A stretch of 64,000 nt of DNA from Takakia lepidozioides (Eukaryota; Plantae; Bryophyta): contig CM060731.1 in NCBI GenBank assembly GCA_030704615.1, forward strand, positions 11,160,001-11,224,000, written 5' to 3'. Made by a program: the position numbers and the translations under genes. The first letter of the stretch is position 1. The number at the start of each line of letters is the position of its first letter. The notes below the pieces were generated by a model, which ran no database searches, had not been told where the DNA came from, and was given only the letters and a program-made list of their open reading frames with translations. Below, in pieces: positions 5,576 through 43,705 of the stretch.

Positions 5576-5822
5576 CTGGTGGGTAGGTCCCTCTACCTCC
5601 AGATAGCTACAAGATGTAATAGCCACAGCCGTACTAAGTCCTCTATCACTGCCCCTATTGCACTCAAACTCTATAGACCAAGAGGCCGGGTACAAGAGTA
5701 GCCCCATCGTTAGTCGCCATCTTGCAATCTGTGAACTTGAGCCAGGACCTCGTGTGTTCAAGGTCTCCTAGTAGCTGGGCCTTGCGTTTCTTGTTAGCCT
5801 TCCATGGTTGTATCCACTCCCA

Positions 5823-7220: not shown

Positions 7221-7222
7221 TC

Positions 7223-8956: not shown

Positions 8957-9249
8957 CTATGCTGCAACCTCTTGAGCAGTACTCCCTTCTTGCTCAGTCA
9001 ATGACAAGGCCTCATCCTGCCCCATCATCTCATCATTGAGAACCTCCTCATCCCGAGAAGAATCCCCAACCTCATCCATCACAGCTGCCTTGGCTACCAA
9101 CTCCATCTGAACCTCGAGCACCTCCCACGTGTGCCATGGATGTCTACACCCCGTGGTCCTCACCGGCTCGCCCCCACTTGCTGCCTGTACCGTCTCGGTA
9201 GGCAGAGAGACCGTCAAGGGAAGTGCACTCCGCACTCTACGTTGCTCAG

Positions 9250-10125
9250 CCATAGCCAAGCTGATAATCCAGGTCAAGCAATTGAGATCCATTGCTTGCC
9301 CCAACACCTGACGACGTGATGCCTCAGAAAAAGAGGGCACCGCCGTGGTACCAGTGGTGAAACCCATCGCCCGCTCGCGCTCGTCAGCATTGGGCTCTAC
9401 TAATTACTGCAACTGGCTATCCCACAAGAGGCCATGTCCACCATCCTGAAAAGCATGAGATCCTGGAAAGCTAAGCAGTGTAGGCAATGCGGCTTGTGGG
9501 TGACCCACCTTATTGACCACTGCCAAAGGTGATCGGTCATCATGTCTCACACGTTGAGACTGTCTCCCTATGTCCAAAATGCTATCCACCGTCAGGTGTG
9601 GTGGCCGCTGCACCCCATCAAATGCACACTTAAGCAGTGCGGGTGGCATCAAGTTAGTCCACCAAAGTCGTGGACGATGAGCCCGTGATCCCACTGCAGC
9701 TGCATCCAGCAACACTGCTGACCCAAGCCACGACCGGACTTAATGCACACTGGCCATCACCCTGGCCCGAGAATCACCCATCAGTGGCACATTCTCCAAG
9801 ATGTATGCTGGAGATACAGCTTGATGAAGCTGCAAGTGGCGCAAAACCCGCACCATCTCCCAAAACAGACCCGTCCTCGAGTCTCTTGCGCCCCCAATAA
9901 GGAAATGTCTGCTGGCAAGGCTTGTTGGTATCCACGAACTGCAGACACATGCAACAAGTCAGGGTACTGCTGTACCAACTGAGCCACATGGCGCAGTAAG
10001 ACGCGTCGTGCAATCTCATCCCTCTCCACATACATGTAACGCCTTACCCGCACACCTGCCTGTAGCACAGCAGCCAATCCGGTGCTGATCCCGCCAAACA
10101 AGTCCAGAAGGCAAATGCCTTCATC
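9250..10125 (-). pseudogene. Copy A DNMT3-like C5 cytosine methyltransferase, catalytic motif IV deleted
   Basis: Motif I LDLFGGIST, II YVERDE, VI ENV, VIII DAAAVGSRAHRPRLWWTN, IX ERERAMGF, X RQVLGQAM. About 87 bp containing GWPCQG is missing near 9885 relative to copy B. Confidence 0.88.
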
Positions 10126-10479
10126 CGGATACTGCCACACAATAGGTGTGGTATCCAATGGTGACAACTGAGGTGGTCCTGGTGCAATACCCGCACTCTC
10201 CTCCTCTCCTGACGGTACAAAAGCCTCTACCCAGGCTTGTTGCACCCGTCGATCAGCAACCTACTACAAATCCTTGCTCGTACCCCACAATGGAGTGTGA
10301 GCAACCATGGCAGGCAACTCCGCCATACCATGCATGTCATCCTGCTCTGCTGGAGATGGCACATCCTCTGCATGGGCATTGCCTTCCAGCAACTCTCCAG
10401 GCCAACTAACTGCAGCTGTAAAGGCAGCTAGTGTTGGCATCTTGCCCCGTTGGGCAGCCGCAATACCCCCAATGAATGT

Positions 10480-10870
10480 CACAGGGAGCTGTGCACGACG
10501 ACCATCCCCTGACTGCCATCCAGGCCTGTAGAATGCTGACTCCTCCCAAAAGTCCAGGGTGAAGCTCATGGGGTATAACACTGCCCCACCAACAAGGACA
10601 TCGTAAGAGACCGCGTCTGTCACAATGGCCTTGGCTCGCATTACTGAGCCATCGATAAGATGATCCGGCTGTAGTCTAATGGCCAACTGATGTCGTGTCA
10701 TGCCCCGAGCCTGCTCTGATCCTCCCAGAGATGTCTGTATCTGGAAAGGACAAGGCTCCATATCCGCCTCCATGAGGCCCAAACCTGCAATAGCAGCTCT
10801 ACCCAACATCAGTGGCTGAGCTCCCGAGTCCAACAAGACCCGTAGTGGCCGGTACTTCTTGCCTGCCGGT
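10480..10870 (-). CDS. Copy A retroviral-type aspartic protease domain
   Basis: RVLLDSGAQPLMLG ... YDVLVGGAVL within ORF 10264-11178. Confidence 0.85.
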
Positions 10871-11317
10871 CCACTCAAAGTAAAAATGCCTCCCTGGTTG
10901 TCTAACAAGACAACTCCAGGTGTCACCATGGCGCGCTCAAAGGCTGGCCTAGCTGGCAGCTCCGTCAACCTGGCAGCTGCAGCTTGCCATGGCGCAGCCG
11001 TGGCAGTCTTGATCCTCAAATCCGAGGATCCCTCTGCCACTACACCTTCCAGTAACTCCGCAGAAGATGAAGTGACCTCCCCACTCTCAAAGAGTGTTGC
11101 TGCTAGTCTGAACACTGCAGCTGGTCTTACCCCCGGCGTCGCAATCATGGTTGCCGAGAACAGTGGGGCTTGACACACAGAGGTGGCTGCCCCAACAACA
11201 CACCGGCTGCACTAGCCTTGGCAGCAGGTGTCAGTGCTGCACGTGTAGCTCTCCCCAATGGCATAGAAACCTCCGCCTCGGTAACAGTCAGGCGAGAACT
11301 AGGTGCCATGGATGGCG

Positions 11318-13067
11318 TCAACACTGTCTCCGCCAATGTGAATGACTGAGGAGCCTCGCCTGACGGCTTGCCTCCCCATGTTGTGGATCCAACTCCACCT
11401 CTACACCTCGTGGCTCAGGAACTCGTGCTGCTCCTCGAGTCACGGCTGCAGCAGACTCCACCTGCTTTAGTGGTAGTGCTGCTCCGCACATGAATCCCAT
11501 GCCTCCCATATCTCCTCCCTCAGGCGCAGGAGGTGGACCATCCCGCCTGGGAGCCGGTACCGCCTGAGCTGTAGCCATGGCAGCGAGCCTCTGCTCTAGC
11601 TGCTGAAGCCGGTTGGCCATGCCTTGGTCAACACCCTGACCTCCGCGTCCGTGGCCATGTTGAGCTTGCCCTTGGCCTGCACCTCGTGCCCGACCACCTC
11701 GTCCTCTCTGGGCTGGTCCACCTCGCCCCCGGCCACCATTGTTCCCTTGGAACTGGCCTGGGCGCAACTCAGGATGCAAGTCATAACACTGGGCATCTCC
11801 ATGCCCATACTTGCCACAATGCCCACACTGCAACTGTGCAGGCTGTGTTTGTGCCGGCCTTTTGCCACTCTCTGAGCAATCTCTCTTGACATGGGGTCCT
11901 CCACATGTCCAACATATCACCCCTGGTTGCTGTTGGCCTGCAAAAGATGCCACGGGCCTCTGCACCTGAGGTCCCCTGTAAGCTCCATGGAACTTGGGTT
12001 GGGAAACCTTGCCCCCCTGACCACGCTGTTGGGCAGTCCCTTGTGCCTGTGGGCTGGCAATTGCGCCTCGTGCAGGCATGTCCTTGCCAAACCAATGGTA
12101 ACAACTCGCTCCTCCACCATGTTGAGCTCAATCCGCTCAGCCAGCAGAAACACATCTGCTAATGTGGGTTGGGCTGCTTGTAACAGGGTTGCATCCCGCA
12201 CCCTTCTCCTGAGCTCCTTGTCCAAAATTCCATACCAAAACTGGATTGCCTGAGCTTCAGTAACCCCTTGGGTCACACTTATCAAGCGCCTCATACGAGT
12301 GTAGGCCTCTCGCAAGCTCTCATTGGGTTTGCGCTGGAAGTCTTGCAAACTTTGCAGCTTCTCTGTCCGTACACCTTGGTAGTTCCTCCGCAACTCCTGG
12401 AAGAACTCCACCACCGGGTGAATCTAGGCACATGTGTTGTAGTCGTGGCAGGAGGAGTAGTAGCACCTTTTGAACTGGTACCACCTGCAGAAGTATCGGC
12501 ACTACTTGTTCCACTACTAGTGCTGGTAGTGGGAGATATCGGTACTGATGCAGCTACTGGTCGCATCGTGCCTCGAGTAATGGAGACGTAGTCAGATGAC
12601 CAATACATCCTCCACTCCTCAATCTCTGCTTCATGTCCTCGCCTGAACTCGTGGTAATCGTCCATAGGCGGGCCTTCCAAATGCTGGAACAGCCCTTTCC
12701 ACGCCATGAATGGGGTGAATAGCTGTGGATTGCGCATTTGCTGCAAATCACACCAGCTGTCGAACTCCTGGATAAAGTCATCCAACTCGATTGTGCCCAC
12801 AGCTCCAGAGTACCTACGAGGCCCCTTGGTAGCTCCATACATCTCCTCCATGTCGTCCCACAACAATGGCAAATGAAACTGCACACCTGTTGATGAAGCT
12901 TCCGAGTCTGTGTCTGACTCTGCACTAGTTGAGGGTGGCGGTGAAGGTGGTCTGAACCAAATACCTCGTCTTGTGAACCCACTCTCACTATTACTGCCTG
13001 TAGCCGTACTCCCCTCAAAACCCTTGGGTAACTCCGTGATGACACTCACAATGTGCACCTCCCCCAC
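11318..13067 (-). pseudogene. Copy A gag (capsid-like region, two CCHC zinc knuckles, RGG-rich tract), frameshifted
   Basis: FQRKPNESLREAYTRM; CWTCGGPHVKRDC; CGHCGKYGHGDAQC; GGRGRGG repeats. Confidence 0.85.
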
Positions 13068-14759
13068 GTGACACTATAGGGCTCTAGTACTAATTCTAAT
13101 AGTGACACGGGTGGGCACCTGTTGCAGTTTAAGGGTCATATCCCAATGGCTCAGGGCACCTGCACCTGCATCCACCGCAAGAACTCCTATGGTTGGCTGG
13201 TCATCAACCCAGCCTCACCATAGAAGAAACACTGGTGGTCTTGCTGGTCATCACTCCAGCCTCACCACCGACAGCATACTCTAGGATTGACCGGTGATCA
13301 AATCCGGCCTAATCCCTATGAAAGCAAGCGCCCACACAAAACCAACATGGCGCACAGTCAAGCATGCAGGTGTTGGGGGGGATCCAAACACAAGAAATCA
13401 AAACATCAACACCCCCACACCAAAATCCAGCTGCAATGCTGATCCTGCAGAATATCCCAGCCCAAAACCCCGGACTGACTGGCCTCCACCAAGAGAGGCT
13501 TTGGCAACTACGAGTACAAGGTAATGAAAATAGTACAGAGATGGAGGGGAAGAATAGAAGCCCGCCAAGCAAGATCTAATCCTGATCTATGCTATCAACT
13601 TCCAGACTTCTCTCAAAGTGCCTCGCTCTGCATGATGGTAAGGTGTAGGAGGTATATCTATGTCCAGAAACCTGCCACTAACCTTGTCCCAAGCTACAGT
13701 AGCTCGCTCTAACCAACCCTCCTCCTCTTTCTGCCAGGTAGAGACAAAGCAACACACTGCTATCTCCCGCTCACTGAACACTAAAGAAAACAAAGGTAGG
13801 GTCTGATAGTCTCTCAACTCGAAAGCTTTGAGACGGTTGCGGGTGTCCTCATTGCGAATGACTGCATCTCCTTCAAACAGAACAAACTTGTCCTCGCTAA
13901 TGAACCCCCGCTCGTGGTTGCCTTGTGCAGAGCGTGTCCGGCTGCAACGCTGTCTGATTGCACAAACTTGTGTAGCTCCTGCTCCTCTGCTCTAGTACAC
14001 CACAGCCTTGTGGCTGAACACCTTGGTCCCCGGGGCTGTCTTTGGCTGTGTTCCAAGCCTAGCTTTCACCCACTTTGGTATTTCACTTACAGCTGCAGAA
14101 CTGCTGGCTCCAACAGAGTTCTGACTGTCCAAAGCGATATTGAGGCCCTCAACGCCAACTACAGCAGTCTGTTGTCTACTGCTAATGCCTGACTCCCAGT
14201 ATGCAATCAACTCGTCCAACTGTTCTCCACTCAAATCAGTCTGAGTTCCTTGGGAAACATAAATCTTGTCCCCTTGTGTGCACAGGCTAAGAGAAGAGAC
14301 CTGCCCTTCAATTACGTCCTCATTTCCCCCAGCCATACAAGGAGGACATCCACAGATTTGTCTCTCAAATAGACCAGAATTGGTTCTAGAAACAGAATTG
14401 TGGATCTTTCACGACACACTCACACTCTAAAAATTCCATAGATTTTTAGCAGAGTCCCAAAAACAGAAACCAGGTCTAGATAGGTAGATTTCCCCTTTCT
14501 GCAGCTATTCCCTCAAAAACTGAGTCAAACGGAGCTCATTTGACAGAGATATGGCCAAAGCGGCTCTGTAACTATAATAAATGACCTTAAATAGAAACAA
14601 ATACAACGAAAAATTATTTTAAATTGGTTCCCTTTGGTTCCCTGTTCCCACCTTTTTTTTTTTTTTTTTTTCACTACAGTATAGTCACCGTTCCCAGGTG
14701 CCCATCGATTAATGCACCAACCAAATTGGATTCACCAACGCAATGGTGTATGCTGATGC

Positions 14760-16270
14760 GATACATCTGATGTCAGCCGTCTGTCCAGTACCACAGATTG
14801 GAGGAGAGTAGCAAATCACACGCCCATCTTCCCCAAGCATAGTACAATCCAGGGCTGAAGGATGCAATTGCGACACTGCGCAGATCACATCATCTCCAAA
14901 GGGGCAACTAGCTTGTGAAAGAGATGCCTGCAAACAGGAGTTCCTGGTGGCAGCCATAACAGAAGGCCCGCTCCCTTCTTCCCATTTGCCTCGGCTAAAT
15001 CACCAATCTCTTCAAACAGGGGCACCTATTATCCTCTCCCGTGTATCTACACATTCCGGAGAAGCGGGATCAGTGTTGCCACATCCCTCGACAATATACT
15101 CGATAGATTTGGTGAACCCGATGACCACCTTTGACAGGGCTCAACGCACTCATCCCAGGTATATATTCCCATGTGTACTGTAGGTAGATGGTCATCTCAA
15201 GCTCATCGCCTTCAAAACCCTCCTTCACAACACAGCGCTTCCATCTGTGCAGCACTAAAGGCCTCCCAGGTAACTTTCTACTAAAGGATCTCCTTTGCGG
15301 TCCACAGTCACATTGTGAAGATCACACGCCAAATCCAGTAGCTGACTGCAAATTGTTGTAGCCTCTAATTCGGGTAAAATAATAAACACAACTGGATCGC
15401 TCAGGCACTGTCGACCTTATGGCAGTACACCGGCCCCTAGCTTCTTCTCTATTTTCTACCCTCCTTTGTAAGGGTTAACACGGCACATGATAAGCTAGGG
15501 GCTGGAGAAGCAGTACTGGAATCCATCTCATGCTTTTAAAATGACGCCAACGTCAGCCCATAATTTATCACTCAGCTCCCTGCAACGGATTGTTGTCCGC
15601 TATAGCTCTGTGCCAGGTCAATAGGGATTATGGGCTAAGGTAAACCTTGTGGGCTGCAGCCATTTGTGAGGCATTTAGTGACTGGTGGGGACGAGGCCCT
15701 TACACATTGTCTTCCTGTAGAGAACTTCCTCAAAACAGGTGTAAAAGATTTCAGAGAAGAGTAGAAAAGAAGCAACCGGCACTCACTGCACCCTAGTTTG
15801 TTGACGGCCCCCCGTGTGTCACGGCCGTGGACATTAAGAATCCATATCGGCTCGTAGCCCTCAGCAAGCAGGGAAGGAGCTGCAGTCTCTTCAGCAAAGG
15901 GCGCGGGGATAGTTGACTTGGTGCGCCTGGTCTCCGCACCAACACCAAAGTACTGCATCAACGTCTGTCCAGCTGAGAGCTTCACGCCAGAGCCAGCAGC
16001 CTTCAAATGAGGCAGCGTGTAAGGTAGATTGAGACGAAGAGTGATTCTTCTCCACAGATTTCAGTAGCATCTCCTTATGGGTGTCTACATCATTGCTCGG
16101 TACAGAGAACTCGTACGTGATCCAGTGGTGCAGGTACACGTTGTTCAGAGGCACAGACATACCCTTCTCGTCCACAAACTCCGCATAGCAGTCCCTAATT
16201 CCCAGATGGCCCTTCGGAGCATCCACCACGAAGTGTTTGTTCTTTACGTCTCCAAGACTAGAACAATGCG
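14760..16270 (-). pseudogene. Captured SURNod19 (stress up-regulated Nod 19)-like gene fragment inside copy A leader
   Basis: VDAPKGHLGIRDCYAEFVDEKGMSVPLNNVYLHHW; QYFGVGAETRRT; EGYEPIWILNVH..DTRG..KLGCSECR; CDLHNVT; GEDGRVICYSPPICGTG. Contains stops and a probable intron ~15330-15777. Confidence 0.8.
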
Positions 16271-16600
16271 GCGTCGCTGCTGGGTGGCTGGTTGCAGCCG
16301 CATCACTAATCGAACAACTCTAGAATGCTACCACAGCCTGCCCTGAAATCACCGCTCCAGTGGTCACCCCATTGGCCGCTTCCTCATTATATCCTCTTTC
16401 TTTATTGCTGCCACTTAATCCCCATTCTCAGATATATACACAGGTTGACAAAAATCGTAACAACATCTCAAGCTTTTTGTTCTGCTCCACTCGGCACACC
16501 TAACCAGTCTAACTGCAGACTCCCCGTGACCAAGCTACATTATAATAGTGCTTAAAAACAAAAACATCGTATCTAGCTTAGCACTAGAAAACTAGATAGA

Positions 16601-16617
16601 GCTCATCTCTCTCGAGT
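16601..16617 (-). promoter_or_regulatory. Putative self-priming primer-binding site of copy A
   Basis: Directly abuts A1 and is the exact 17-nt reverse complement of 16800-16816 inside A1. No tRNA-type TGG start. Confidence 0.6.
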
Positions 16618-16966
16618 GATAAGAAAAGCTAAGAACACACTGTTGACACAAAACATGACAACCAAAACCATCACTCTTTAGAATAGAAGTCGAGCCAGGG
16701 GCACCCCAAGCTATGGGGACTCCACCCCACAACAACCTATACTCCCATCATAAGCACACTCAGTCCTAAACGATGCAGGAGCTCGGTCGCGCAGGCTCAA
16801 CTCGAGAGAGATGAGCCACGCGACTGCCGCTCTCGTGAAGATAAGGCCGTTCAAGTGTCAAACTAAACTTGACACCTGATTTAACACTTGACTTAAATCC
16901 AAGTGTTAAATACAAATAACTAGCTTTATTCTAGTTGTTTTCACACTGTGCTTATTTAACTTGACA
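16618..16966 (-). repeat. Copy A 5' terminal repeat A1 (349 bp)
   Basis: Same length as A2 (5127-5475), about 11 substitutions counted by eye. Confidence 0.92.
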
Positions 16967-16970
16967 TTGT

Positions 16971-19190
16971 GTCCACACATCCAGATCATCAAGGTTGAGG
17001 ACTACTGCAGTCTCCCTGCGAATAGATGCAAGCAAATCTGGCTCTTGGCCAAAGAGCAGGAAATAAGGCGAGTACGAGGCAAGTGATGCTTGCTTGTTTG
17101 CTTGCTTGCAAGTGATGCTTGCATAGCCAACCAAGGTAGCTGAAGGTCCCAATCTCCCAAGTGTCCATTCTGCAAGCCATACTTGCACAAGCCTCGCTTG
17201 ACTATTTGCACAACCCTCTCGGCCAAGCCATCAGCCTCGGGATGATCCCGAGAAGGAGTGCGGTGATCTATCAAGGCTTGCTCACACAAAGCCTGAAACT
17301 CCCCCAAGAACTCTCTCCCCTGGTCCATGAGTACCTCGGCTGGAGCACCAAATTGGCTAAGCACTCGATCTAAGAATGCATACGTAGCCCCCTTACTTGT
17401 CTTGTCAGGCAATGCCACCAGTTCAATCCATTTGGAGAAATGTTCCACCATCATCAGCACATACTTGTTATGGCGAATCGTTACTGGCAATGGGCGTACG
17501 AAGTCAAGACTCCAACGATAGCCCAAACCCATAATGGGTAAAGGATGCAATTGTGGAGTAGGTGCATTGAAAGAAACCCGCACTCTATCACACACCATGC
17601 ACTTTGTCACTAACTATTGCACATCCGTGTGCATGCCCCGCCACCAATACTGTCATTGCAGCAAACTATGAGTGCGCCGCACCCCAAAATGTCCATACTC
17701 CTCATGGGCATGGCGTACCAATCGCGCTCGTTGTGTTGGATGAGGCATAATCCTCACTTGTATATCCTTCCATACTCGGAGTAGGTGAGCCCCCTCCCAC
17801 TTGAACCTCTTGGCTCGTTGTAGGATCCGATCTCTTTCCTTAGCAGTCACACTGGCTGCTGTCTCTCTAGTACAAAGATAGGCCAACACTGCTGCATCTT
17901 CATGTACATCCTTAGCACCACGAAGCTCCTCACTGATCTCTGGAAAGTCATGCACACTATCTCTATGACCAATCGCATGGGATGGACCAGCTTGAGCTCC
18001 CATTGCTAGAATGCATAAAAAGGCAGATGCATGTCATCCTGGCACCATCTCCTCATCCATCTCACCATGCCAATGAGCTCTTGTATCATCAAGCTCACTT
18101 GTGCATGGATTGCGACTCAATCCATCCGCATCCCGGTTGACTATTCTGGCTCGATGCACCACCTGGAAGTCGTACTCTTGAAGCATAAGTGCCCACCATA
18201 CAAGCTCCCATGTAAGCTTGTCTGACTCCATCAACACTTCAATGGTTGGTGATCCGTGACAAGCGTGAAGAGATTGACATAGAGGTAGCATCTAATGTAT
18301 CACTGCCCATACTGCAGCTAGACACTCCTTTTCGTAGGGACTGTACTTCGCCTCGGCATCATTGTTCGAGCAGCTAGCATATGCCACTACGAACTCTCTT
18401 CCCTCATCATCCACGTGTGTGAGCACTGCTCCAATCCCCAGCATACTCCAATCCGTATGTAGCTGGAAAGACCGCCCCCGAATAGGTCGCCTCAGAATAG
18501 GCGCAGAAGTCAATCGAGCCTTGAGTTCCTCAAAGGCTTCCTCCTGTTCCTCCTCCTACTGCCACTCTTGACCCACCTTGGTCAACTTGGTAAGAGCCTT
18601 TGCAATGCTGCTAAATCCCTTGACAAACCGTCGATAGTAGTTTGCCAACCCCATGAAAGCACGAACTCTGCTAACATCGATGGGGCATGAAATGCGTGCA
18701 ATGGCCTCCACCTTCATCTTTTGAACACCCAATCCTCCAGGGTATATCATGTGGCCCAAATACTCAATCTGGTTATGGAAGAACTTGCACTTCCCAGGGT
18801 GCAATTTCAACCCATGCGTTCTCAAGCGCTCAAACACCATCTGAAGGTGTCTCTCGTGCTCCTCAATCGTAGCACTAAAGATGATGATGTCATCAATGTA
18901 GCACCGGACGAAGTCTAGCCCCGCAAGAATCATATCCATGACCCTCTGAAACTCTGCAGGAGCATTCTTCAACCCAAATGGTAGGAACTGCCATTGGTAC
19001 AAGCAATCCTTCCCATGTTGGTCAATCCCCCAGAATGTCGTCTTTTGTTTGTCAGCCTCTTTGATTGGCAAATGGTGGTAAACGGATCGCAAGTCCAATG
19101 TGCTAAACACCTTTGCATGCCCAATGGCATCAAAGATCTCCTTTGGAGTTGGCATGGCATATCTATCGGACTTAGAATGACGGTTCACAG
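16971..19190 (-). pseudogene. Copy C integrase, RNase H and RT remnants
   Basis: WSLDF..DQGREF..AER; LHTDWS; YIDDI. RT N-terminus deleted and fused to DNMT near 19190. Confidence 0.88.
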
Positions 19191-20676
19191 CCCAAATCAA
19201 CCCTGGACCATTGTCTCGAAAAGCATGAGATGAGGAAAAACTCATGAGTGTAGGCAAGGCCGCACGTGGTTGTCCCAATCGATTAACCACTGCCAAAGGT
19301 GGATGGTCATCATGTCAATGTCGCACCCTCTGTGGTTGTCTCCCTTGGTCCAAAATGCACTCAACCGTGAGGTTGGGTGGTTGTTGATGGAATCATAGGC
19401 TCTCTTGAGCAACTCTGGTGGTGCAAGATTGGTCCACCACAACCTAGGCTTATGTGCCCATGAACCCACTGCAGCTGCATCCAATAATACGGTTAGTCCA
19501 ATCCAAGACCGCACCTGATGCACATAGCCATAACCCTGGCCCGATAATCCCCCATGAGAGGAACATTCTCCAGGATGTAAGCTGGAGGTTGCACTTGCCT
19601 CACCTGCAAGTCACGCAACACTTGTAACATCTCCCAAAACAAATGTGACATTGCATCATGCAAGCCATTCCCATGACCTGCGGGAGAGTGTCCTTGGCAA
19701 GGCCATCTATCACCAAGTCAATTGCACCATGCTGGCCCAAATCATCCGCCCCCAGCAAGGTAATGTCTGTTGGAAAGGCCTTTTGGTACCCTTGAATTGC
19801 TGAGAGAGACAGCAACTCAGGATACTGGTGTGTGAGCAAGGCAACGTGGCGCATAGAATTACATCGAGCTATCTCATCATTCTCCACATACAAATACTTT
19901 TGTACTTTAATCCCAGCTTGCAACACTCCTGCAAGCCCAGTGCTCATGCCTCCAAACAGGTCTAGCAAACAAATCCTTGAGTCAGATGGTTGCCAGGTAA
20001 TGGGCACTGTGTCCAAATGAGCTAACTAAGGAGGTCCAGGTGATGTCACTGAACTCCCCTCATTCATCAATGGAAATGCCTCATGCCATGCTTGGTGCAC
20101 ACACTCGTCTGCTACTCGCTGCAAATTCCCAACCGTACCCCACAGTGGAATATGAACAGGCACATGAGGAAGCAACTCAGCCTTGTATGCCAGTTGTTTG
20201 TCCTCATCAGATGGTGGCCTATCATCTGCATGGCTATTACCTCCAAGAGCTCACCACCCCAAGCCACAACCCCTAAGAATGCAGCCAATGTGGGCATCAT
20301 GTTCATATGATCCACCGCTACATTCCCAATAAACCGCACTGGGAGCAGTGCACGTTGGCCATCCCCTGACTGCCACTCCGGCCTGTAGGATGTTGTTTCC
20401 TCCCAAAAATCAAGAGTAAATCCCATGGGGTACAACACAGCCCCACCAACAAGCACATCATAGGACATCGCATCCGTAACAAAGGCTTTAGCTCTCATGA
20501 CTGAGCCGTCCGTAGGATGATCCGGCTGCAATCGAATGAAGAGCTCATGGCGTGTATCCATCGCGTCTTCTCTGAACCACCCAAAGATGTTTGAATTTGG
20601 AAATGGCAAGGCTCCAAGTTCGCCTCTGTAAGGCCCAAGCTTGCAATTGCTGCTCTCCCCAACATCAAAGGTTGTG
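19190..20676 (-). pseudogene. Copy C DNMT3-like methyltransferase and protease remnants
   Basis: ICLLDLFGGMSTG, YVENDE, frameshifted IDLVI/WPCQG, YILENV, DAAAVGSWAHKPRLWWTN; YDVLVGGAVL. Confidence 0.85.
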
Positions 20677-32610: not shown

Positions 32611-32777
32611 ACAGAGACAGCCTCATTATGCAATGCAACTATTGTCTCCCAGCTTTTCTACCACATCACGAAGACCCCCTAAAAGAGTATGCGGCACCGC
32701 ACACTGCAACCACCACACACAAAATAGCCTGAAGGGCCCAGGGTATGCACGTTGGTGTTACTACACACGGATAGAGC

Positions 32778-33133
32778 TGTCAAGTTAAATAAACACAGTG
32801 TGAAACTAACTAGAATAAATCTAGTTTTTTGTATTTAACACTTGGATTTAGTTCAAGTGTTAAGTCAGGTGTCAAGTTTAGTTTGACACCTGAACCGTCT
32901 TATCTTCACGAGAGCGTCAGTCGTGCGGCTCATCTCTCTCGAGTTGAGCCTGCACGACCGAGCTCCTTCACTGCTTAGAATCGGAGTGTGCTTATGAAGG
33001 GAGAATAGGATGTTGTGGGGTGGAGTCCCCATAGCTTGGGGTGCCCCTGGCTCGACTCTTAGTTTTAATGAGTGATTGTGTTGTGTTGAGTGTTTCTTTG
33101 TTATCAGACATGTGAGTTTAGTTATTTCAATCA
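32778..33133 (+). repeat. Copy B 5' terminal repeat A1 (356 bp)
   Basis: Matches 43264-43619. Confidence 0.92.
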
Positions 33134-33149
33134 CTTGAGAGAGATGATC
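33133..33149 (+). promoter_or_regulatory. Putative self-priming primer-binding site of copy B
   Basis: ACTTGAGAGAGATGATC is 15/17 complementary to GCTCATCTCTCTCGAGT at 32928-32944. Confidence 0.55.
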
Positions 33150-33507
33150 TTGCATCTGTGAGTGCCAGAGGTGAGTTTAGTTGTAGCACTTGTGGTTTTT
33201 GTTTTGAAAGTGAGAAAAGAAAATTATGGTGGTTTGTAGATTATGTTTGTGACAAGCTGGTTGAGACAGAGAAGCGATTATCTGTGTTCAGGTAATCTTT
33301 AGTTAGAAAGATGTCAAGTTTGGCCACTGGAGCGATGGTTAGAAAGCACGGTGAAGCCTTCTACTGTCTATCAGCTTTGTCATCGTTGTTGCCATCAAAA
33401 GGCTGACGGTGTGACAATGGCGGTGCCTTCCAGTGCCTAGGTTGAACGTACATGCCAGCACCTGGCATCGTCGGAGCATACTGGTCACCACCAACCTGTG
33501 CATTATG

Positions 33508-33769
33508 CGCCACCGTCGGTGCGGAAGCCGATGACGAAAGAATATCCTTCTTGCTAAAGGAGTTGGATGGTAAAGATATTACGGAGGTGATTGCTTCCGG
33601 TAGGGAGAAGTTTGCATCTATGCCATCAGGCGTAGGCGGCGGCGGCGGTGTTGTGGTGGCTTCCTCTGGTGGAGGTGGAGATGGAGGTGCTGCTGCTGCA
33701 CCTGTTGGAGAAAAGGAGGAAAAGAAGGAGGAGTCTAATGATGACATGGGTTTCAGCCTTTTCGACTAA
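33508..33769 (+). pseudogene. RPP2: Captured 60S acidic ribosomal protein P2 fragment (N-terminus missing)
   Basis: [39 protein letters not shown]...[13 protein letters not shown]. Confidence 0.88.
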
Positions 33770-33944
33770 GCTTGGGATGCAGTTTTGCAGCGCATCCGAT
33801 GGTTACTTTGATGCTATCTCAACTGCATGTGGCTGTTGAGCATTACTTAACAGTCGTTTTATACCTGCGCTGGTGCTGGTGGAGGTGACGCCATCGCCAC
33901 AGGAGCACCTTGCTTTATCCTCGGGGCGGCTGCTTGTTCTTCAG

Positions 33945-34065
33945 CTTATGTCTTCAACCTCCTCCAGATAGTCATTGAAGTCTCGAAGTGATGAAAACCC
34001 GTCCTCTCGTTTATTGAACAAGTTCTGAATTTTCCGACGCACAACAATCTCCTTGTTCATTTCGC
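33945..34065 (-). pseudogene. Captured MAT1 (CAK assembly factor) fragment
   Basis: KEIVVRRKIQNLFNKREDGFSSLRDFNDYLEEVEDI. Confidence 0.75.
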
Positions 34066-34229
34066 AGTGTTCGGCTTGTCCTTCTTGATCAACGCACTCT
34101 CTCAGACATTTCTGTGCTCTCAACTCCAAGCTAGGAAGAAAGAGGAGCAAAAGCTGGGGGCTGGATTCCGGAACTTGGTCGCAGACGGGCATTTGAAGAG
34201 GCCTTCATGAGTATGTGGATGAAGATAGC

Positions 34230-34830
34230 TGATATTGGAGAAGGTCATAAGTTGCATGAACCACAACCAAAGTTCCCTGCTTTGTGGTGGCACTCATGCA
34301 GAATGATTCTACCCCTTGTGATCTCAATGTCTTTTGAAACATGGGCCAGCAATCTGCTGCCTCTGGGATATCCATCTTGTTGTAAGCCACTACGTGTGGT
34401 TTAAGTGCCAAGTTGGCGTTGAAGAGCTGCAGCTCCAAGCGCACTGCTTCATACTCCTGAACAGCTTGCACACTTGTACCGTCCACCACCTGCACTAGGA
34501 CACGGCAATGCTCTGTGTGACGGAGGGACTCATGGCCCAAGCCCCCATGTGCTCTTCCAGCAGGCCGGGTAGATCAGCCACCACCATTGATGTGTCAAAA
34601 TCCAATGCCACTACCCCTAAGTTGGGCAGCAGTGTAGTGAAGGGATAGCTGGCAATTTCAGGGCGCACAGCACTGATGGCACTCAAAAGTGTGCTCTTGC
34701 CAGCATTTGGAACGGCCACTATGCCCACATCTGCAACCAGCTTCAGCTCCAATTCCACCCACATTTCTGCACCCTCTTCGCCATTTTCGGCCATCTGAGG
34801 AGTCTTGTTGCGACCAGTTTTGAGGCAGTG
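34230..34830 (-). pseudogene. Captured Obg-family GTPase fragment
   Basis: [23 protein letters not shown]; [11 protein letters not shown]; DLPGLLE; [15 protein letters not shown]; NKMD. Confidence 0.88.
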
Positions 34831-35599
34831 TTGCCTCACCCACCCCGACCTCCCGGCAGCAGCAGCTCCTGCTTCCCTGGAGTGGTCAATTCCAGCAGAA
34901 CATCTCCATTCCTTTAGTCTTCCCAACGCCGTGGCAACTCTGTGTTGACATTGGCTTCACCTGCTTTAGCCTTGGAAAGCTATTATGAAGGTTTGAAGAA
35001 GGCGTCCAAGGAATTCTTAGGGAACCTGCAGTGAATCGCAAAAAACGTGGGAACAAGGAACCAAAGGAAACCAATTGAAAATAGTTTTTCCTTGTATTTG
35101 TGTCTATTTAAGGTCATATATTATATTTACAGAGCCTCTTTGGCCATATCTTTGTCATATGAGCTCCGTTTGACACAGTTTTTGAAGGGATAGCTGTAGA
35201 AAGGGGAAATCTACCTACCTATTTAGTTTTTTGGACTCTGCTAAAAATCTATGGAATTTTTTGAGTGTGAGTGTGCTATGAAAGATCCACAATTCTGTTT
35301 CTAGAACCTGTTGTGGTTTACATGAGAGACAAATATGTGGATGTCCTCCTTATATGGCTGGGGGAAATGATGACGTAATTGAAGGGTCGGTGGTGAGGCT
35401 GGAGTGATGACCAGCAAGACCACCAGTGTTTCTTCTATGGTGAGGCTAGGTTGATGACCAGCCAACCATAGGAGTTCTTGTGGTGGATGCACGTGCACAT
35501 GCCCTGAGCCACTAGGATATGACCCTTAAACTGCAACAGGTGCCCACCCGTGTCACTATTAGAATTAGTACTAGAGCCTTATAGTGTCACGTAGGGGAG

Positions 35600-37300
35600 G
35601 TGCACGTTATGAGTGTCATCACGGAGTTACCCAAGGGTTTTGAGGGGAGTACGGCTACAGGCAGTCGCAGTGAGAGTGGGTTCACAAGACGAGGTATTCG
35701 GTTCAGACCACCTTCACCTCCACCATCAACTACTGTAGAGTCTGACACAGACCTGGAGGCTTCATCAACAGGTGTGCAGTTTTCTTCGCCATTATTGTGG
35801 GACGACATGGAGGAGATGTATGGAGCTACTAAGGGGCCTCGTAGGTACTCTGGAGCTGTGGGCACAATCGAGCTGGATGACTTTATCCAGGAGTTCGACA
35901 GCTGGTGTGATTTGCAGCAGATGCGCAATCCACAGCTGTTCACTCCATTCATGGCGTGGAAGGGATTGTTCCAGCATTTTGAAGGCCCGCCTATGGATGA
36001 TTACCACGAGTTCAGGCGAGGATATGAAGCAGAGATTGAGGAGTGGCGGATGTATTGGTCACCTGACTACGTCTCCATTACTCGAGGAACAACGCGACCA
36101 GTAGCGACATCAGCACCAATACCTCCCACGGCCAGCACTAGTAGTGGAACAAGTAGTGCTGGTACTTCTGTAGAAGGTGCTACTACTCCTTCTGCCACGA
36201 CTACAACACATGTGCCTAGATTCAGCCCGGTGGTGGAGTTCTTCCAGGAGTTGCGGAGAAACTACCAAGGTGTACGGACAGAGAAGCTGCGAAGTTTGTA
36301 AGACTTCCAGCGCAAATCCAGTGAGAGCCTGCGAGAGGCCTACACTTGTATGAGGCGCTTGATAAGTGTGACCCAAGGGGTTACTGAAGCTCAGGCAATC
36401 CAGTTCTGGTATGGAATTTTGGACAAGGCGCTCAGGAGAAGGGTGCGGGATACAACCCTGTTACAAGCAACCCAACCCACATTAGCAGATGTGTTTCTAC
36501 TGGCTGAGCGGATTGAGCTCAACATGCTGGAGGAGCGTGTTGTTACCATTGGATTTGGCAAGGACATGCCTGCACGAGGCGCAGCTGCCAGCCCATAGGC
36601 ACAGGGGACTGCCCAACAGCGTGGGCAGGGGGGCAAGGTTTCCCAACCCAAATTCCATGGAGCTTACAGGGGACCTCAGGTGCAGAGGCCAGTAGCATCT
36701 TTTGCAAGCCAACAGCAACCAGGGGTGATATGTTGGACATGTGGAGGACCCCATGTCAAGAAAGATTGCCCAGAGAGTGGCAAAAGGTCGGCACAAGCAC
36801 AGCCTACATAGTTGCAGTGTGGGCATTGTGGCAAGTATGGGCATGGAGATGCCCGGTGTTATGACTTGCACCCTGAGTTGCAGCAAGGCCAGTTCCAAGG
36901 GAACAATGGTGGCCGAGGGCGAGCTGGAGCACCTCAGAGAGGACGAGGTGGTCAGGCACGAGGTGTAGGACGAGGGCAAGCACAGTATGGCCAAGGACGT
37001 GGAGACCAGGGCGTTGACCAAGGCATGGCCAACCGGCTTCAGCAACTAGAGCCAAGGCTTGCTGCCATGGCCACAACTCAGGTGGTACCAGCTCCAAGAC
37101 CTGAGGGTCCACCTCATGTTCCTCCTTAGCAGCGTCATCCTGACGGAGGAGACATGGGAGGCATAGGATTTATGTGTGGGGCAACACTACCATTAGTGCA
37201 GGTGGAGTCTGCTGCAGCCGTCACTCGAGGAGCAGCACGAGTTCCTGAGCCACGAGGTGCAGAGGTGGAGTTAGATCCACATCGTGGGGAGGCAAGCCAT
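35600..37300 (+). pseudogene. Copy B gag with two CCHC knuckles; premature stops
   Basis: Homologous to A 11318-13067. Confidence 0.87.
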
Positions 37301-37799
37301 TAGGCTAGGTTGCCTCAATCATTCACCTTGGGGGAGATAGTGTCGACGACATCCATGGCACCTAATTCCCGCCCGACAGATACAGCGGCCGTTATTGTGC
37401 CATTGGGGAGAGCTACACGTGTAGCACTGACACCTGTTGCCAAGGCTAGTGTAGCCAGTGCGTTGTTGGGGGCAGCCACCTCTGTGTGTCAAGCCCCACT
37501 GTTCTCGGCGACCATGATCGCGACGCCAGGGGTAAGACCAGCTGCAGTGTTCAGACTAGCAGCAACACTCTGCGAGAGTGGGGAGGTCACTTCATCTTCT
37601 GCGGAGTTGGTGGAAGGTGTAGTGGCAGAGGAATCCTCGGATTTGAGGGTCAAGACTGCCACAGCTGCGCCATGGCAAGCTGTAGCTACCAGGTTGACGG
37701 AGCTGTCAGCTAGGCCAGCCTTTGAGCGCGCCATGGTAACACCTGGAGTTGTCTTGTTAGACAACCAGGATGTCATTTTCTCTTTGAGTGGACCGGCAG

Positions 37800-38190
37800 G
37801 CAAGAGGTACCGGCCACTGCGGGTCTTGTTGGACTCGGGAGCTCAGCCACTGATGTTGGGCAGAGCTGCTATTGCATGTTTGGGCCTCATGGAGGCGGAT
37901 ATAGAGCCTTTTCTTTTTTAGATACAGACATCTCTGGGAGGATCAGAGCAGGCTCGGGGCATGACACGGCGTGAGTTGGCCATTAGACTACAGCCGGATC
38001 ATCCTATAGATGGCTCAATGATGCGAGCCAAGATGTGACAGATGCGGTCTCTTACGATGTCCTTGTTGGTGGGGCGGTGTTATATCCTATGGGCTTCACC
38101 CTGGATTTTTGGGAGGAGTCAGCATCCTACAGGCCTGGATGGCAGTCAGGGGATGAAGTACAACTCCCTGTGACATTCATTGGGGGTGTT
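37800..38190 (+). pseudogene. Copy B aspartic protease
   Basis: RVLLDSGAQPLMLG; YDVLVGG. Confidence 0.85.
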
Positions 38191-38529
38191 GCTGCTGCCC
38201 AGCGGGGCAAGATGCCAACACTAACAGCCTTCACAGCTGCAGTTAGTTGGCATGGAGAGTTGCTGGAGGGCAATGCCCATGCAGAGGATGTGCCACCTCC
38301 AGCAGAGCAGGATGACATGCATGGTACGGCGGAGTTGTCTGCTATGATTGCTCACACTCCATTGTGGGATACGAGCAAGGATTTGCAGCAGGCTGCTGAT
38401 AGACGGGTGCAACAAGCCTGGGTAGAGGCCTTTGTACCGTCAGGAGAGGAGGAGAATGCGGTGATTGCACCAAGACCACCTGAGTTGTCGCCATTGGACA
38501 CCACACCTCTTGTGTGGCAGTGCCCGGAT

Positions 38530-39490
38530 GAAGGCACATGCCTTCTGGACTTGTTTGGCGGGATGAACACTGGATTGGCTGCATTGCTGCAGGCAGGTGT
38601 ACGAGTTTGACGTTACCTGGAGAGGGATGAGACTGCACGACGCATCTCACTGCGCCATGTTGCTCAGTTGGTGCAGCAGTATCCTGATTTGTTGCCAGTG
38701 TCTGCAGTTCGTGGATACCAACAGGCATTGCCAGCCGACATCTCTTTGCTGGGGGCGCATGATTTGGAGCGGGTTGACCCTATTCACTTGGTAGTGGCAG
38801 GTTGGCCTTGCCAAGGGCATTCATCAGCCGGGCATGACAATGGGTTACAAGACTCAAGGTCACGCCTGTTTTGGGAGATATTGAGGGTCCTACGCTATTT
38901 ACAACTTCAGCAGACAGACTCTCCGGCATATATCTTGGAGAATGTGCCATTGATGGGTGATTCTCGGGCCAAGGTGATGGCCAGTGTGCATCAAGTGCGG
39001 TCTTGGCTTGGGTTAGCAGTGTTGCTGAACGCAGCTGTAGTGGGGTCACGGGCTCATCGCCCACGACTATGGTGGACCAACTTGATGCCACCTGCACTGC
39101 TCAAGCGTGCATTTGATGGGGTGCAGCGGCCACCACACCTGACGGTGGATAGCATTTTGGACATAGGGAGACAGTCTCAACGTGTGAGACATGATGACCG
39201 ATCACCTTTGGCAGTGGTCAATAAGGTGGGTCACCCACAAGCCGCATTGCCTACACTGCTTAGCTTTCCAGGATCTCATGCTTTTCGGGATGGTGGACAT
39301 GGCCTCTTGTGGGATAGCCAGTTGCAGTAATTAGTAGAGCCCAATGCTGACGAGCGCAAGCGGGCGATGGGTTTCACCACTGGTACCACGGCGGTGCCCT
39401 CTTTTTCTGAGGCATCACGTCGTCAGGTGTTGGGGCAAGCAATGGATCTCAATTGCTTGACCTGGATTATCAGCTTGGCTATGGCTGAGC
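38530..39490 (+). pseudogene. Copy B DNMT3-like C5 cytosine methyltransferase with all major motifs; frameshift ~38610, TAA at 39328
   Basis: I LDLFGGMNTG; IV LVVAGWPCQG; VI YILENV; VIII GSRAHRPRLWWTN; IX ERKRAMGF; X RRQVLGQAM. Confidence 0.92.
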
Positions 39491-39780
39491 AGCGCAGAGT
39501 ACGGAGTACACTTCCCTTGATGGTCTCCCTGCCTACCGAGATGGTACAGGCAGCCAGTGGGGGCGAACAGGTGAGGACCACGAGGTGCATGCCGCATCCA
39601 TGGCACACGTGGGAGGTGCTCGAGGTTCAAAAGGAGTTGGCAGCCAAGGTGGCGGTAATGGATGAGGTTGGGGATTTTTCTTGGGTTGAGGAGGTCCTCA
39701 AGGATGGGATGATGGGGCAGGATGAGACATTGTCACTGACAGAGGAGGCAGTGATCACTGCTCAAGAGGTTGCAGCATAG

Positions 39781-42700
39781 CAACCACGGGACGCGTCTTC
39801 TACCTCTAAGCCTGCTGGACTCAAGGTTGCAGTCACGAAGGACAACTGGGAGCCTGATGTTGGACCTATAGTCACCGGAGGAGAGAAACGACGTATACGG
39901 CGGTTCTTGAGGGCTTACAGGAACTGCTTTGCCTTCAGTTTGAAGGACTTAGGAGCACTGAAGGGTCAAGAGATTCGCATTGAATTGGCTACTGACACGC
40001 CAATCTTTCGGAGACCCTATAGATACAGTGACATGGAGAGGTCTTTGATTCAGATGAGAACTCAGGACCTTTGGGGGCTGGTTTGGTGGAGCTATCTGGG
40101 GGAGAGTATGCTTCAGCCACAGTGATGCCAACCAAGAAGGATGTCTATGGCAATTGGACGGAGAGACGTATGTGCGGTGATTACCGGCCTGTAAATCGTC
40201 AGACCAAGTTCGATAGGTATGCCATGCCGACACCAGATGAGATCTTTGATGCCATTGGGCATGCCAAGGTCTTTAGCACTTTGGATTTACGATCCGGATA
40301 TCACCAATTGCCGATCAAGGAGGCGGATAAGCAGAAGACGACATTCTGGGGGATCAATGAGCACGGGAAAGATTGCCTATACCAGTGGCGGTTCTTACCA
40401 TTTGGGCTTAAGAATGCTCCGGCAGAGTTTTCAGAGAGTCATGGACAAGATTCTAGCAGGGGTGGAGTTTGCTCGGTGCTACATAGATGACATCATCATC
40501 TTTAGTGCTACGGTGGAGGAGCATGAGAGACACCTTCAAGTGGTATTTGAGCACTTGAGGGCGCACGGATTGAAGTTACATCCGGGGAAGTGCAAGTTTT
40601 TCCACAACCAAATTGAGTATCTGGGTCACATGATATATCTTGGAGGATTGGGGGTACAGCAGACTAAGGTAGAGGCCATTGCACGGATTCCACGCCCCAC
40701 GGATGTGAGCCGAGTTCGAGCTTTCATGGGGTTAGCAAACTATTATAGACGGTTTGTTAAGGGATTTAGTGCCATTGCAAAGGCTCTAACCAAACTGACC
40801 AAGATGGACCAGGAGTGGCAGTGGGAAGATGAGCAAGAACAAGCTTTTCAAGAGCTCAAGGCGAGGTTGACCTCGGCGCCCATCTTGAGACGACTTATCA
40901 GGGGGCGTCCTTTTCAGCTGCATACAGATTGGAGCATGCTGGGGCTTGGAGCGGTGCTCACATAGGTGGATGATGAGGGAAGAGAGTTCGTAGTGGCTTA
41001 TGCTAGCCGCTCGAACAACACTGCAGAGTCTAAGTATAGCTCATATGAGGGAGATTGCTTAGCTGCAGTGTGGGCCGTGGCACACTTCAGGTGCTATCTA
41101 TACGGCAATCTCTTCACCCTTGTCACGGATCACCAACCACTCAAGTGGTTGATGGAGTCAGACAAGCTTACGGGGAAGCTTGCACGGTGGGCACTCATCC
41201 TTCAAGAGTATGACTTTCAAGTTGTGCATCGACCGGGTTTGGTCAATCGGGATGCAGATGGGTTGAGTCGCAATCCATGCACGAGCCAGCAGGATGACAC
41301 TAGAGCTCGGTGGCATGGTGAGACGGACGAGGAGATGGTGCCTGGATGGCATGCATCTGCATTTCTGTGTATCTTGGCAGCGGAAGGCCAGGTTGGACCT
41401 GCAACAGGGATGACTGTAGATCAAGTGTCTGAGGACCCTGAGGCCAGCAATGAGCAAGGTGGCGCCAAAGATATACATGAGGATTCAGCTGTGTTGGACT
41501 ACCTCCGCACTGGAGACACGACAGCCACTGTGACTGCCAAGGAGAGGGATCGGATCCTACAACGAGCCAAGAGGTTCAAGTGGGAGGGGAGACACCTGCT
41601 CCGAGTGTGGGAGGATGGTCAAGTGAGGATTGTGCCTCACCCAACACAGCGGGCACGGTTAGTGCGGCATGCCCATGAGGAGTTGGGGCATTTTGGGGTG
41701 CGACGCACTCATAGTCTACTGCAGGGGCAGTATTGGTGGCGTGGTATGCACACAGAGGTGCAATAATTTGTGGCTAGGTGCATGGTGTGTGACAGGGTGC
41801 GTGTTTCATTCAATGCCCCTACTCCACAATTGCACCCTCTTCCGATCATAGGATTGGGCTACAGGTGGAGTCTTGATTTCGCAGGGCCGTTGTCACTAAC
41901 CATGCGCCACAACAAGTACGTGTTGGTGATGGTGGAGCACTTCTCCAAGTGGATCGAGTTGGTTCCATTGCATGATAAGGCTAGTGAGGGAGCTGCGTAT
42001 GCATTCTTGGATTGTGTACTTAGCCGATTTGGTACTCCAGCTGAGGTACTCACGGACCAAGGGAGAGAGTTCTTGGGGGAGTTTTCAGGCTTTGTGTGAC
42101 AAGGCCTTGGTAGACCACCGCACCACTTCTCGGGATCATCCTGAGGCCAATGGCTTGGCAGAGAGGGTTGTTCAGACAGTAAAGAGGGGTTTGCGCAAGT
42201 ATGGCTTGCAGAAGGGACACCTAGGAGATTGGGACCTTCAGTTACCCTGGTTAGCCATGGGCTATAGGTTCAGCAAGCAAACATCACTTGCCTCATTCTC
42301 ACCATACTTTCTTCTCTTTGGCCGAGAGCCGGATTTGCCTACATCCATTCGCAGAGAAGCTGCTATAGTTCTTAACCTTGACGATCCGGACGTCTGGGCA
42401 CGTGCATGTGATCAACGTGCAGAGTTGTTCAAGAAAGTCGTGCCCATGGCTTTCGAGAACCTTGCCATTGCACAACATCGTGATACGTTGAGGTATGCTA
42501 CCATACGTGGTGGGGGCTATCGTCATGGGGTTCGAAGATTCAACCCTGGTGACTATGTCTATCTGCAGCAGACTGCTCCTACGACCTTGGATGTGACTGC
42601 AGGACGTATTATTTTGAGGGTTCGAGAGGTCTTGCCCTCAGGCGTCTTGATCTTGGAGGGTCGGGATGGCATAACTTGGAAGGACCATGTGCGTAATTGT

Positions 42701-42916
42701 ACGTCATGTCACCTTCCGAATGTCGATGGCAGGATTGACCCAAACCTGGCAGTGGTACCTGCAAGTTTGAGGTGCATGTTGTGTGGGTCTGCTAGAGGGG
42801 CAGCTACCATGCTGGTGTGTGATCGATGCTCTAGAGGTTGGCATATGGGATGCTTGACTCCACCTCTTGAGATGGTTCCTGATGGGGATTGGTTATGTCC
42901 GCATTGCATTGGATAG
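39781..42916 (+). pseudogene. Copy B RT-RNase H-integrase-PHD
   Basis: YIDDI, TDWS, DDE residues, C4HC3 PHD at ~42773-42910; several frameshifts and stops. Confidence 0.92.
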
Positions 42917-43162
42917 TGGGAGTGGATACAACCATGGAAGGCTAACAAGAAATGCAGGGCCAAGCTACTAGGAGACCTTGAACACACGAGATCCTGGCTC
43001 AAGTTCACAGATTGCAAGACGGCGACTAACGATGGGGCTACTCTTGTACCCGGCCTCTTGGTCTATAGAGTTTGAGTACAATAGGGACAGTGATAGAGGA
43101 CTTAATACAGCTGTGGCTATTACATCTTGTAGCTATCTAAAATTAAAGGGACCTATCCACCA

Positions 43163-43705
43163 GCTAGGGGGGCGATTGTGGCAGACTACTTTATTGTGCA
43201 TATATGTGTGGTGTAGTTTGGACAACGATGTAGTTGTGTAGCGATACGTATGCGCACGACAACTGTCAAGTTAAATAAACACAGTGTGAAACTAACTAGA
43301 ATAAATCTAGTTATTTGTATTTAACACTTGGATTTAGTTCAAGTGTTAAGTCAGGTGTCAAGTTTAGTTTGACACCTAAACCGTCTTATTTTCACGAGAG
43401 CGTCAGTCGTGCGGCTCATCTCTCTTGAGTTGAGCCTGCACGACCGAGCTCTTTCACTGCTTAGAATCAGAGTGTGCTTATGAAGGGAGAATATGATGTT
43501 GTGGGGTGGAGTCCCCATAGCTTGGGGCGCCCCTGGCTCGACTCTTAGTTTTAATGAGTGATTGTGTTGTGTTGAGTGTTTCTTTGTTATCAGACATGTG
43601 AGTTTAGTTCTTTCAATCATTGTGGCAGACTACTTTATTGTGCATATATGTGTGGTGTAGTTTGGACAGCGATGTAGTTGTGTAGCGATACGTATGCGCA
43701 CGACA
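43163..43705 (+). repeat. Copy B 3' terminus: PPT ~43164-43176, B1 43177-43261, 2-nt spacer, A2 43264-43619, B2 43621-43705
   Basis: 85-bp B repeats; junction GACA-AC-TGTC. Confidence 0.93.

Follow-up and report, generated by a model that had tools for sequence, protein, structure and literature searches.

A conserved in-frame TAG between the Dnmt3-like methyltransferase and the reverse transcriptase of a bryophyte Gypsy retrotransposon is a likely stop codon readthrough site

Retrotransposons that carry a DNA methyltransferase (DNMT) may methylate their own reverse-transcribed DNA, as proposed by de Mendoza et al. (PMC5890265). One element of this kind, KnitGypsy-Dnmt3 of Klebsormidium nitens, is described as possessing DIRS-like repeats, Gypsy domains and a DNMT within the Pol open reading frame (ORF) (de Mendoza et al., 2018; PMC5890265). 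In the covered part of that paper 'stop codon' occurs in a single passage, on long interspersed nuclear elements (LINEs) of Symbiodinium, and three supplementary files of the paper contain no text on KnitGypsy. Here, Gypsy-Dnmt3 elements are analysed in a stretch of 64,000 nucleotides (nt) of the bryophyte Takakia lepidozioides (assembly GCA_030704615.1, contig CM060731.1, positions 11,160,001 to 11,224,000, forward strand; hereafter the window), which contains two copies, A and B, and parts of an older copy, C/D (Table 1). In copies A and B an in-frame TAG followed by CAA-CCA stands between a first ORF (ORF1) for Gag, protease and DNMT and a second ORF (ORF2) for reverse transcriptase (RT), RNase H, integrase and a PHD finger. 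As judged from comparison of sequences, this conserved TAG is probably a programmed readthrough site of the Gypsy-Dnmt3 lineage.

Several ways to pass or bridge such an interruption are known. UAG-CAR-YYA is the readthrough signal of tobacco mosaic virus (TMV), and 3' stems at a distance of 8-12 nt, which are tied mainly to readthrough sites without CAR-YYA, also stimulate readthrough (Firth et al., 2011; PMC3159437). Among long terminal repeat (LTR) retrotransposons, SIRE1 of soybean, a Ty1/copia element, is described to suppress an in-frame stop before env (PMC2829016; PMC2194720). An in-frame stop between Gag and Pol, located before the protease, is reported for Tj1, Tosmo1-3 and Tcry1 of fission yeast (10.1101/2022.12.06.519325) as well as for murine leukaemia virus (MuLV) and Tca2 of Candida (PMC2194720). 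In Ogre/Tat elements, on the other hand, the split lies after the protease and involves a spliced spacer of ~274 nt (PMC6317226).

In both copies in the window, the junction TAG is in frame with the DNMT C-terminus on its 5' side and with the RT N-terminus on its 3' side. A preliminary description of this DNA had reported the in-frame TAG-CAA-CCA, which is confirmed at 8959-8951 (-) and 39778-39786 (+), and the proposed separation of Gag, protease and DNMT from RT, RNase H, integrase and PHD finger agrees with the domains found in frame on either side. The same description gave 53 open codons into RT; the frame is indeed open but longer, with 577 codons after the TAG in copy A and 98 codons in copy B, where it ends at a 1-nt gap near 40075. 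Within the 53 codons the two copies show 15 differences, 10 of which are synonymous (pN/pS, the ratio of nonsynonymous to synonymous differences, 0.17), an exact count that equals the estimate previously made by eye. The window contains 1,435 TAG triplets, both strands counted; CARYYA follows five of them, two of which are the junction sites.

The additional claim that the stop has been kept under selection holds for the purifying selection seen downstream, while retention in two copies is weak evidence. Copies A and B are themselves decayed: over 2,309 aligned codons eight stops are present only in B and four only in A, 10 of these 12 private stops being CAG/CAA-to-stop changes, and two stops are common to both copies. 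The second common stop, a TAA followed by TTA-GTA, is situated inside the DNMT 150 codons upstream of the junction TAG. Both common stops have probably been inherited, because independent hits would be expected to yield ~0.14 common stops, and as this decay-type TAA is equally shared, the retention of the junction stop in A and B and the synonymous differences between them are set aside as proof. Around the TAA the copies differ at 17 of 500 bases compared to 55 of 500 in the adjoining stretch, a likeness which suggests that recombinant, defective templates have been mobilised. In the older copy C/D the junction site is missing due to a deletion that matches 39290-40186 of copy B.

The earlier assessment of the junction as likely stop codon readthrough is supported, although by evidence from relatives outside the window. 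The unbroken element L081 (1-9218), the single locus returned by a scan of prokaryote genomes, is by its content a eukaryotic retrotransposon inside a cyanobacterial assembly, likely as a contamination. A single frame leads from Gag into the PHD finger. Apart from its terminal stop, codon 2211, it is interrupted once, by TAG-CAA-TCA at codon 1163, the sole internal stop across 2,210 codons; CARYYA is found after 8 of 2,237 in-frame positions of L081. The DNMT of L081 shares 48% identity with that of copy B, the RT 66% with that of copy A, and since four-fold degenerate sites compared with copy A are saturated (38 of 145 agree), the junction signal common to L081 and the window does not derive from recent ancestry. 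Three scans of viral_contigs did not return a relative.

In a metagenome scan, in which the best 80 of 150 relatives were examined, 60 loci align at the junction to one family that matches the Sphagnum fallax protein P0001 and comprises 52 distinct copies after collapsing. The junction codon of this Sphagnum-type family is TAG in 38, TAA in 13 and GAG in one of the copies, with neither CAG nor CAA in any of them, while the next most stop-rich among 500 codon columns has 12 stops in 43 copies. TAG is the likely original codon, because the share of TAG-to-TAA change at the junction (0.25) lies within the range of 19 other TAG triplets (0.05-0.34). In P0063, a database protein belonging to the Sphagnum-type family, the junction residue is Leu. 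Downstream, CAA follows in 50 of 52 and CCC in 48 of 52 copies, succeeded by ATG, the conservation of which is no higher than that of most other ATG columns. Of the remaining 20 loci, 11 stop short of or break before the junction, and L066 reads CAA-TAG-CAA-CCA. A second peat-moss family (L070, L074, L075, L077-L080) with a stop in 6/7, CAA in 3/7 and TCA in 7/7 copies is given little weight, as all its copies are decayed and frameshifted upstream; L076, also decayed and frameshifted, is ambiguous with TAT-CAA-ATA in the RT frame and TAG in another frame. The CARYYA context, as stated in the preliminary description, is thus present in copies A and B, L066 and L081, but not in the Sphagnum-type family. 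The conserved Trp at the start of RT comes 22, 16, 23 and 25-27 codons past the stop in four families, always in frame, and the downstream frame is open and under purifying selection, with the ATG of the Sphagnum-type family at codon +3.

On the protein level, the intact Marchantia ORF1 proteins P0031, P0032, P0038 and P0039 (1,280-1,281 amino acids (aa)) end at the junction, as do P0025 (1,319 aa), which is accompanied by P0046 (1,040 aa) spanning RT to PHD (each on a contig of 8,781 nt), and P0220-P0227 and others with intact ORF1; intact ORF1 of Calypogeia-type and L081-group relatives terminate at the junction as well. A search for intact copies in which CAG or any other sense codon occupies this site found none, with TAG in L081, intact ORF1 proteins ending at the site and Gln in 0/52 Sphagnum-type copies. 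Among 44 DNMT hits to L081, all 24 with at least 44% identity are without an RT domain in a search that reached 2,080 residues, and 19 of the 20 hits of lower identity carry RT, RNase H or integrase; in a search that reached 3,868 residues, fused forms occur only at 46% identity or less, spliced gene models aside. Out of 150 representatives, 19 distant proteins are continuous from DNMT to RT, seven show the reverse order with RT first, and in one short protein the linker is skipped. Ten distant relatives without the stop were looked up; two of them belong to Closterium and are possibly spliced models, and none of the hits of three protein searches carries the name K. nitens.

In the RT tree, for which 30 of 34 rows were kept, the other four being too short, all seven rows with the stop or with two ORFs group in one clade (99/98). 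A quick DNMT tree of 42/42 rows, in which several of the rows labelled fused have an RT-first layout, places 23 stop-bearing or two-ORF rows in two clades (99 and 98) with no fused row inside. In the simplest reading of these sequence relationships, the junction stop would have arisen a single time, in an ancestor with one continuous frame. The RT-first layout, in which the DNMT comes after RT and continues into integrase-like sequence, is seen in P0157, P0173, P0177, P0184, P0201, P0207, P0239, P0241, P0242 and P0248, with the six rows tested forming one RT clade (100/99). The C-termini of ORF1 are often a small hydrophobic pair (VA, IA, VS, AV) that resembles AAV stretches at other domain borders, and the position of the stop may correspond to an old protease cut site.

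Downstream of the TAG, a long-range stem is predicted that opens ~10 nt past the stop and closes ~70-85 nt further on. The stem was first seen by folding copy A and the Sphagnum-type copy L006, with L081 as an out-of-sample check. In copy A and Sphagnum-type copies it pairs the stretch ~11-27 nt past the stop with the Gly-Gly-Glu-Arg-Arg codons. L081 pairs the same two places as the window element with different arm sequences; its stem of -34.9 kcal/mol is equalled at 0 of 2,168 other positions and by 1 of 2,000 synonymous shuffles, and an arm of L081 combined with one from the window family or the Sphagnum-type family gives only -7 to -14. The stem of copy A is matched by 45 of 2,362 positions and 17 of 2,000 synonymous shuffles, that of L006 by 1 of 1,318 positions and 9 of 2,000 shuffles, that of L061 by 24 of 2,000 shuffles and that of L004 by 138 of 2,633 positions.

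Readthrough is favoured because it explains the frame, the context, the stem and the absent start together. Several observations nevertheless weigh against it. The Sphagnum-type CAA-CCC breaks CAR-YYA at the sixth base (48/52 copies), and an in-frame ATG is found three codons past the stop in 51/52 copies of this family. The stem is not significant in L001 (109 of 2,000 shuffles as strong) and in copy B (650 of 2,298 positions and 411 of 2,000 shuffles as strong) and erratic in the decayed copies of the second peat-moss family (0.1-17.6 expected pairs); the loop length varies and the register of the stem differs among families by as much as 4 nt, so that the conservation is positional and not pair-for-pair covariation. 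Counts of copies within a family are non-independent, the two stop-bearing DNMT clades are not joined with support, and the Tca2 in-frame stop, which has a predicted pseudoknot, is reported to show no detectable readthrough in S. cerevisiae (PMC2194720). Furthermore, a stop common to A and B alone can be plain decay. Such decay, CAG to TAG by methyl-cytosine deamination followed by descent or through two hot-spot hits, would be in line with CAG/CAA-to-stop as the main decay route, evident from the private stops of A and B and from stops in 44 of 260 cells of CAG columns in the Sphagnum-type family, and with the second stop shared by A and B. As an explanation for the junction it is hardly credible, however: Gln is not retained in a single Sphagnum-type copy, any other column has at most 28% stops, the only internal stop of the unbroken L081 is this TAG, and the intact ORF1 proteins known from liverworts and the L081 group have their C-termini at that site.

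As it ends in AG, the TAG could also itself serve as a splice acceptor, and the stop could be spliced out as in Ogre, either with TAG|CAA as a phase-0 3' splice site or by an intron that spans the stop. The peat-moss families indeed possess an acceptor-like TTTTGC(A/G)TAG|CA and, past the stop, a run of pyrimidines with AG at its end, and the gene models P0001 (Sphagnum fallax) and P0002-P0004 (Marchantia) skip the stop. These four models do so at four different places, however, none of which is TAG|CAA, and are probably wrong, that is, annotation artefacts. A competing AG is located 5 nt (window) and 3 nt (L081) before the AG of the TAG, and a donor with 6/8 matches is not shared, one being present in copy B, lost in copy A and absent from L006 and L081. 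The 300 nt upstream have a higher G+C content than the RT core, L081 is without a pyrimidine tract yet keeps the stem, the non-coding spacer of the Ogre type is absent with the ORFs abutting across one codon, and splicing does not require CAA-YCA; we regard it as quite improbable. A separate production of RT, RNase H and integrase by reinitiation past the stop or from an internal transcript, with an AUG or near-cognate start, is equally to be judged against the families. The Sphagnum-type TAG-CAA-CCC-ATG-G, an ATG five codons past the stop in the second peat-moss family and the promoter activity reported from tests of the Tca2 junction (PMC2194720) speak for it. Yet no in-frame AUG precedes the RT core in the two window copies and in L081, with the first Met 85 and 117 codons past the stop, respectively, inside RT; because this ATG is so far downstream, an AUG start would remove the conserved RT N-terminus. 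With the Sphagnum-type ATG no better conserved than its peers, and with CAA-YCA and the fixed frame left unexplained, a separate start is unlikely.

With respect to the anatomy of the element, the Gypsy domain order of protease, RT, RNase H and integrase is present, and the named relatives are from Sphagnum fallax, Marchantia polymorpha and Calypogeia fissa. Pfam does not recognise a protease in the piece 37304-37918 of copy B, and support for this domain comes from the relatives P0249 and P0250, which carry PF13650. The DNMT is of the intronless, non-rearranged Dnmt3 type with catalytic motifs, and its best match among solved structures is DNMT3A (E 7e-9) with PC and ENV aligned. Split repeats (A, coding, B, A, B) are also found in the relative loci L034, L036 and L068; in the window, 43175-43705 and 5039-5564 represent DIRS-like split repeats on an integrase element with TG..CA ends and a 4-bp target duplication. 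The integrase gene of copy C/D is interrupted by copy A, and within these nested insertions (4584-62511) C/D is split also by ~40 kb, in which chromodomain Gypsy elements (21750-25073, 56617-60166) lie along with copy B. An antisense fragment of an Obg-family GTPase (34498-34956, -; Pfam MMR_HSR1, GTP1_OBG), located in the 5' region of copy B, is absent from copy A and the 80 metagenome loci and is possibly a captured host sequence. Elsewhere in the window, tandem repeat arrays with units of ~93 and 372 nt (28156-29211 and 44669-47430) and a weak match to an MFS transporter below the Pfam cut-off (50862-51317, +; E 0.006) were observed.

Table 1. Features of the Gypsy-Dnmt3 copies in the window (positions are those of the window; repeats A and B are repeat units, not copies)
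Feature	Position	Strand	Basis or remark
Copy B, whole element; ends TG..CA; 4-bp target duplication GAGC	32778..43705	+	
Copy B, split direct repeats	A 32777-33133, coding, B 43175-43261, A 43263-43619, B 43619-43705	+	
Copy B, ORF1: Gag with CCHC knuckles, protease, Dnmt3-like methyltransferase	35807..39777	+	broken by stops and a frameshift
Protease DSG motif	37832-37840	+	motif
Dnmt3-like C5 methyltransferase domain, motifs I, IV (PCQ), VI (ENV), VIII (RPR) to X	38542..39462	+	PF00145
Second stop common to A and B, TAA-TTA-GTA, inside DNMT; decay-type	39328..39330	+	relatives have Gln
TAG ending ORF1 (Gag, protease, DNMT), copy B	39778..39780	+	in frame; same site is a stop in relatives
CAA-CCA, matches CAR-YYA context, copy B	39781..39786	+	motif as in PMC3159437
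Copy B, ORF2: RT, RNase H, integrase, PHD finger	39781..42916	+	broken by frameshifts and stops
5' arm of predicted long-range stem, copy B; weakened	39791..39807	+	11-27 nt past the stop
3' arm of predicted stem, copy B; Gly-Gly-Glu-Lys/Arg-Arg codons	39877..39894	+	
Copy A, whole element; A, coding, B, A, B layout; ends TG..CA; 4-bp target duplication TTGT	5039..16966	-	
TAG-CAA-CCA, copy A	8951..8959 (read 8959-8951)	-	sequence
Predicted long-range stem, copy A	8843..8946 (arms 8946-8930, 8860-8843)	-	folding
Older copy C/D, parts	16969..20667, plus 4584-5034 and 60491-62511 (strand given for the first part)	-	

In the proposed readthrough mechanism, most ribosomes would stop at the TAG to yield Gag-protease-DNMT as the main product, while few ribosomes would insert an amino acid, with the predicted stem aiding the CAR-YYA signal, to yield a minor full polyprotein that would be cut by the protease of the element. 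Methyltransferase and protease would then be made at Gag level and RT and integrase at low level; as the stop comes after the DNMT, a large excess of this enzyme over RT and integrase is predicted. It is conceivable, if rather doubtful, that a single-frame Gypsy-Dnmt3 lineage gained a leaky stop after the DNMT, consisting of CAR-YYA and a long-range stem, and thereby packages protease and DNMT at Gag level, so that many DNMTs per particle mark the cDNA prior to integration while RT and integrase are scarce, the stop setting the dose of an epigenetic enzyme. With its intact ORF1 copies, Marchantia offers a test of the self-methylation idea through the predicted DNMT excess. For early land plants, the junction would represent a likely case of natural readthrough in which a TMV-type context is united with a predicted long-range stem.

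The individual parts, Gypsy-Dnmt3 elements, CAR-YYA and 3' stems, are known, while their combination and position were not found described in the literature searched. This search, with subscription papers, Repbase entries, figures and bioRxiv supplements outside its coverage, found no description of the junction. Of two works that mention streptophyte DNMT3 retrotransposons, the covered text of one (10.64898/2026.05.21.726589) has no match to 'stop codon' or 'readthrough', and the passages of the other concerned with these elements (PMC12344493) do not touch the junction. According to its published description, KnitGypsy-Dnmt3 is like the window element in its Gypsy domain set, its Dnmt3-type methyltransferase and its DIRS-like split repeats, but has DNMT and RT in one Pol ORF, whereas in the window lineage a conserved stop stands between them and fused forms are found only in distant relatives; the named relatives of the window element, unlike the K. 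nitens element, are from mosses and liverworts. The junctions of the window, L066 and L081 resemble TMV type I readthrough in having CAA-CCA or CAA-TCA behind the UAG (PMC3159437; PMC2194720), but they belong to a cellular retrotransposon and not to an RNA virus, a predicted 3' stem is added, and one family has CAA-CCC. The 3' stem-loops of alphaviruses and of furo- and tobraviruses have arms equally split by a long loop, at a described 8-12 nt past the stop compared to ~10 nt here (PMC3159437), at sites that use UGA-CUA/CGG in place of UAG-CAA, the stem being a prediction in the present case.

Among retroelements, SIRE1 is likewise a plant LTR retrotransposon that passes an in-frame stop, but it is a copia element in which, as described, the stop comes after pol and before env. 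The SIRE1 stop has a CARYYA context. In Tj1, Tosmo1-3, Tcry1, MuLV and Tca2, an in-frame stop is described to hold RT and integrase low compared to Gag, as would be the case here; their stop precedes the protease, whereas the junction TAG lies past protease and methyltransferase. Some retroviruses possess frameshifts after the protease. Recoding downstream of the protease, which the preliminary description had called unusual, is not without precedent as regards the position of the split, which is known from Ogre, while the means differ, with splicing as the only way described for a post-protease split in plants in the literature searched. In Ogre an intron spacer is spliced out, whereas in the Gypsy-Dnmt3 element of T. 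lepidozioides the two ORFs adjoin across one codon.

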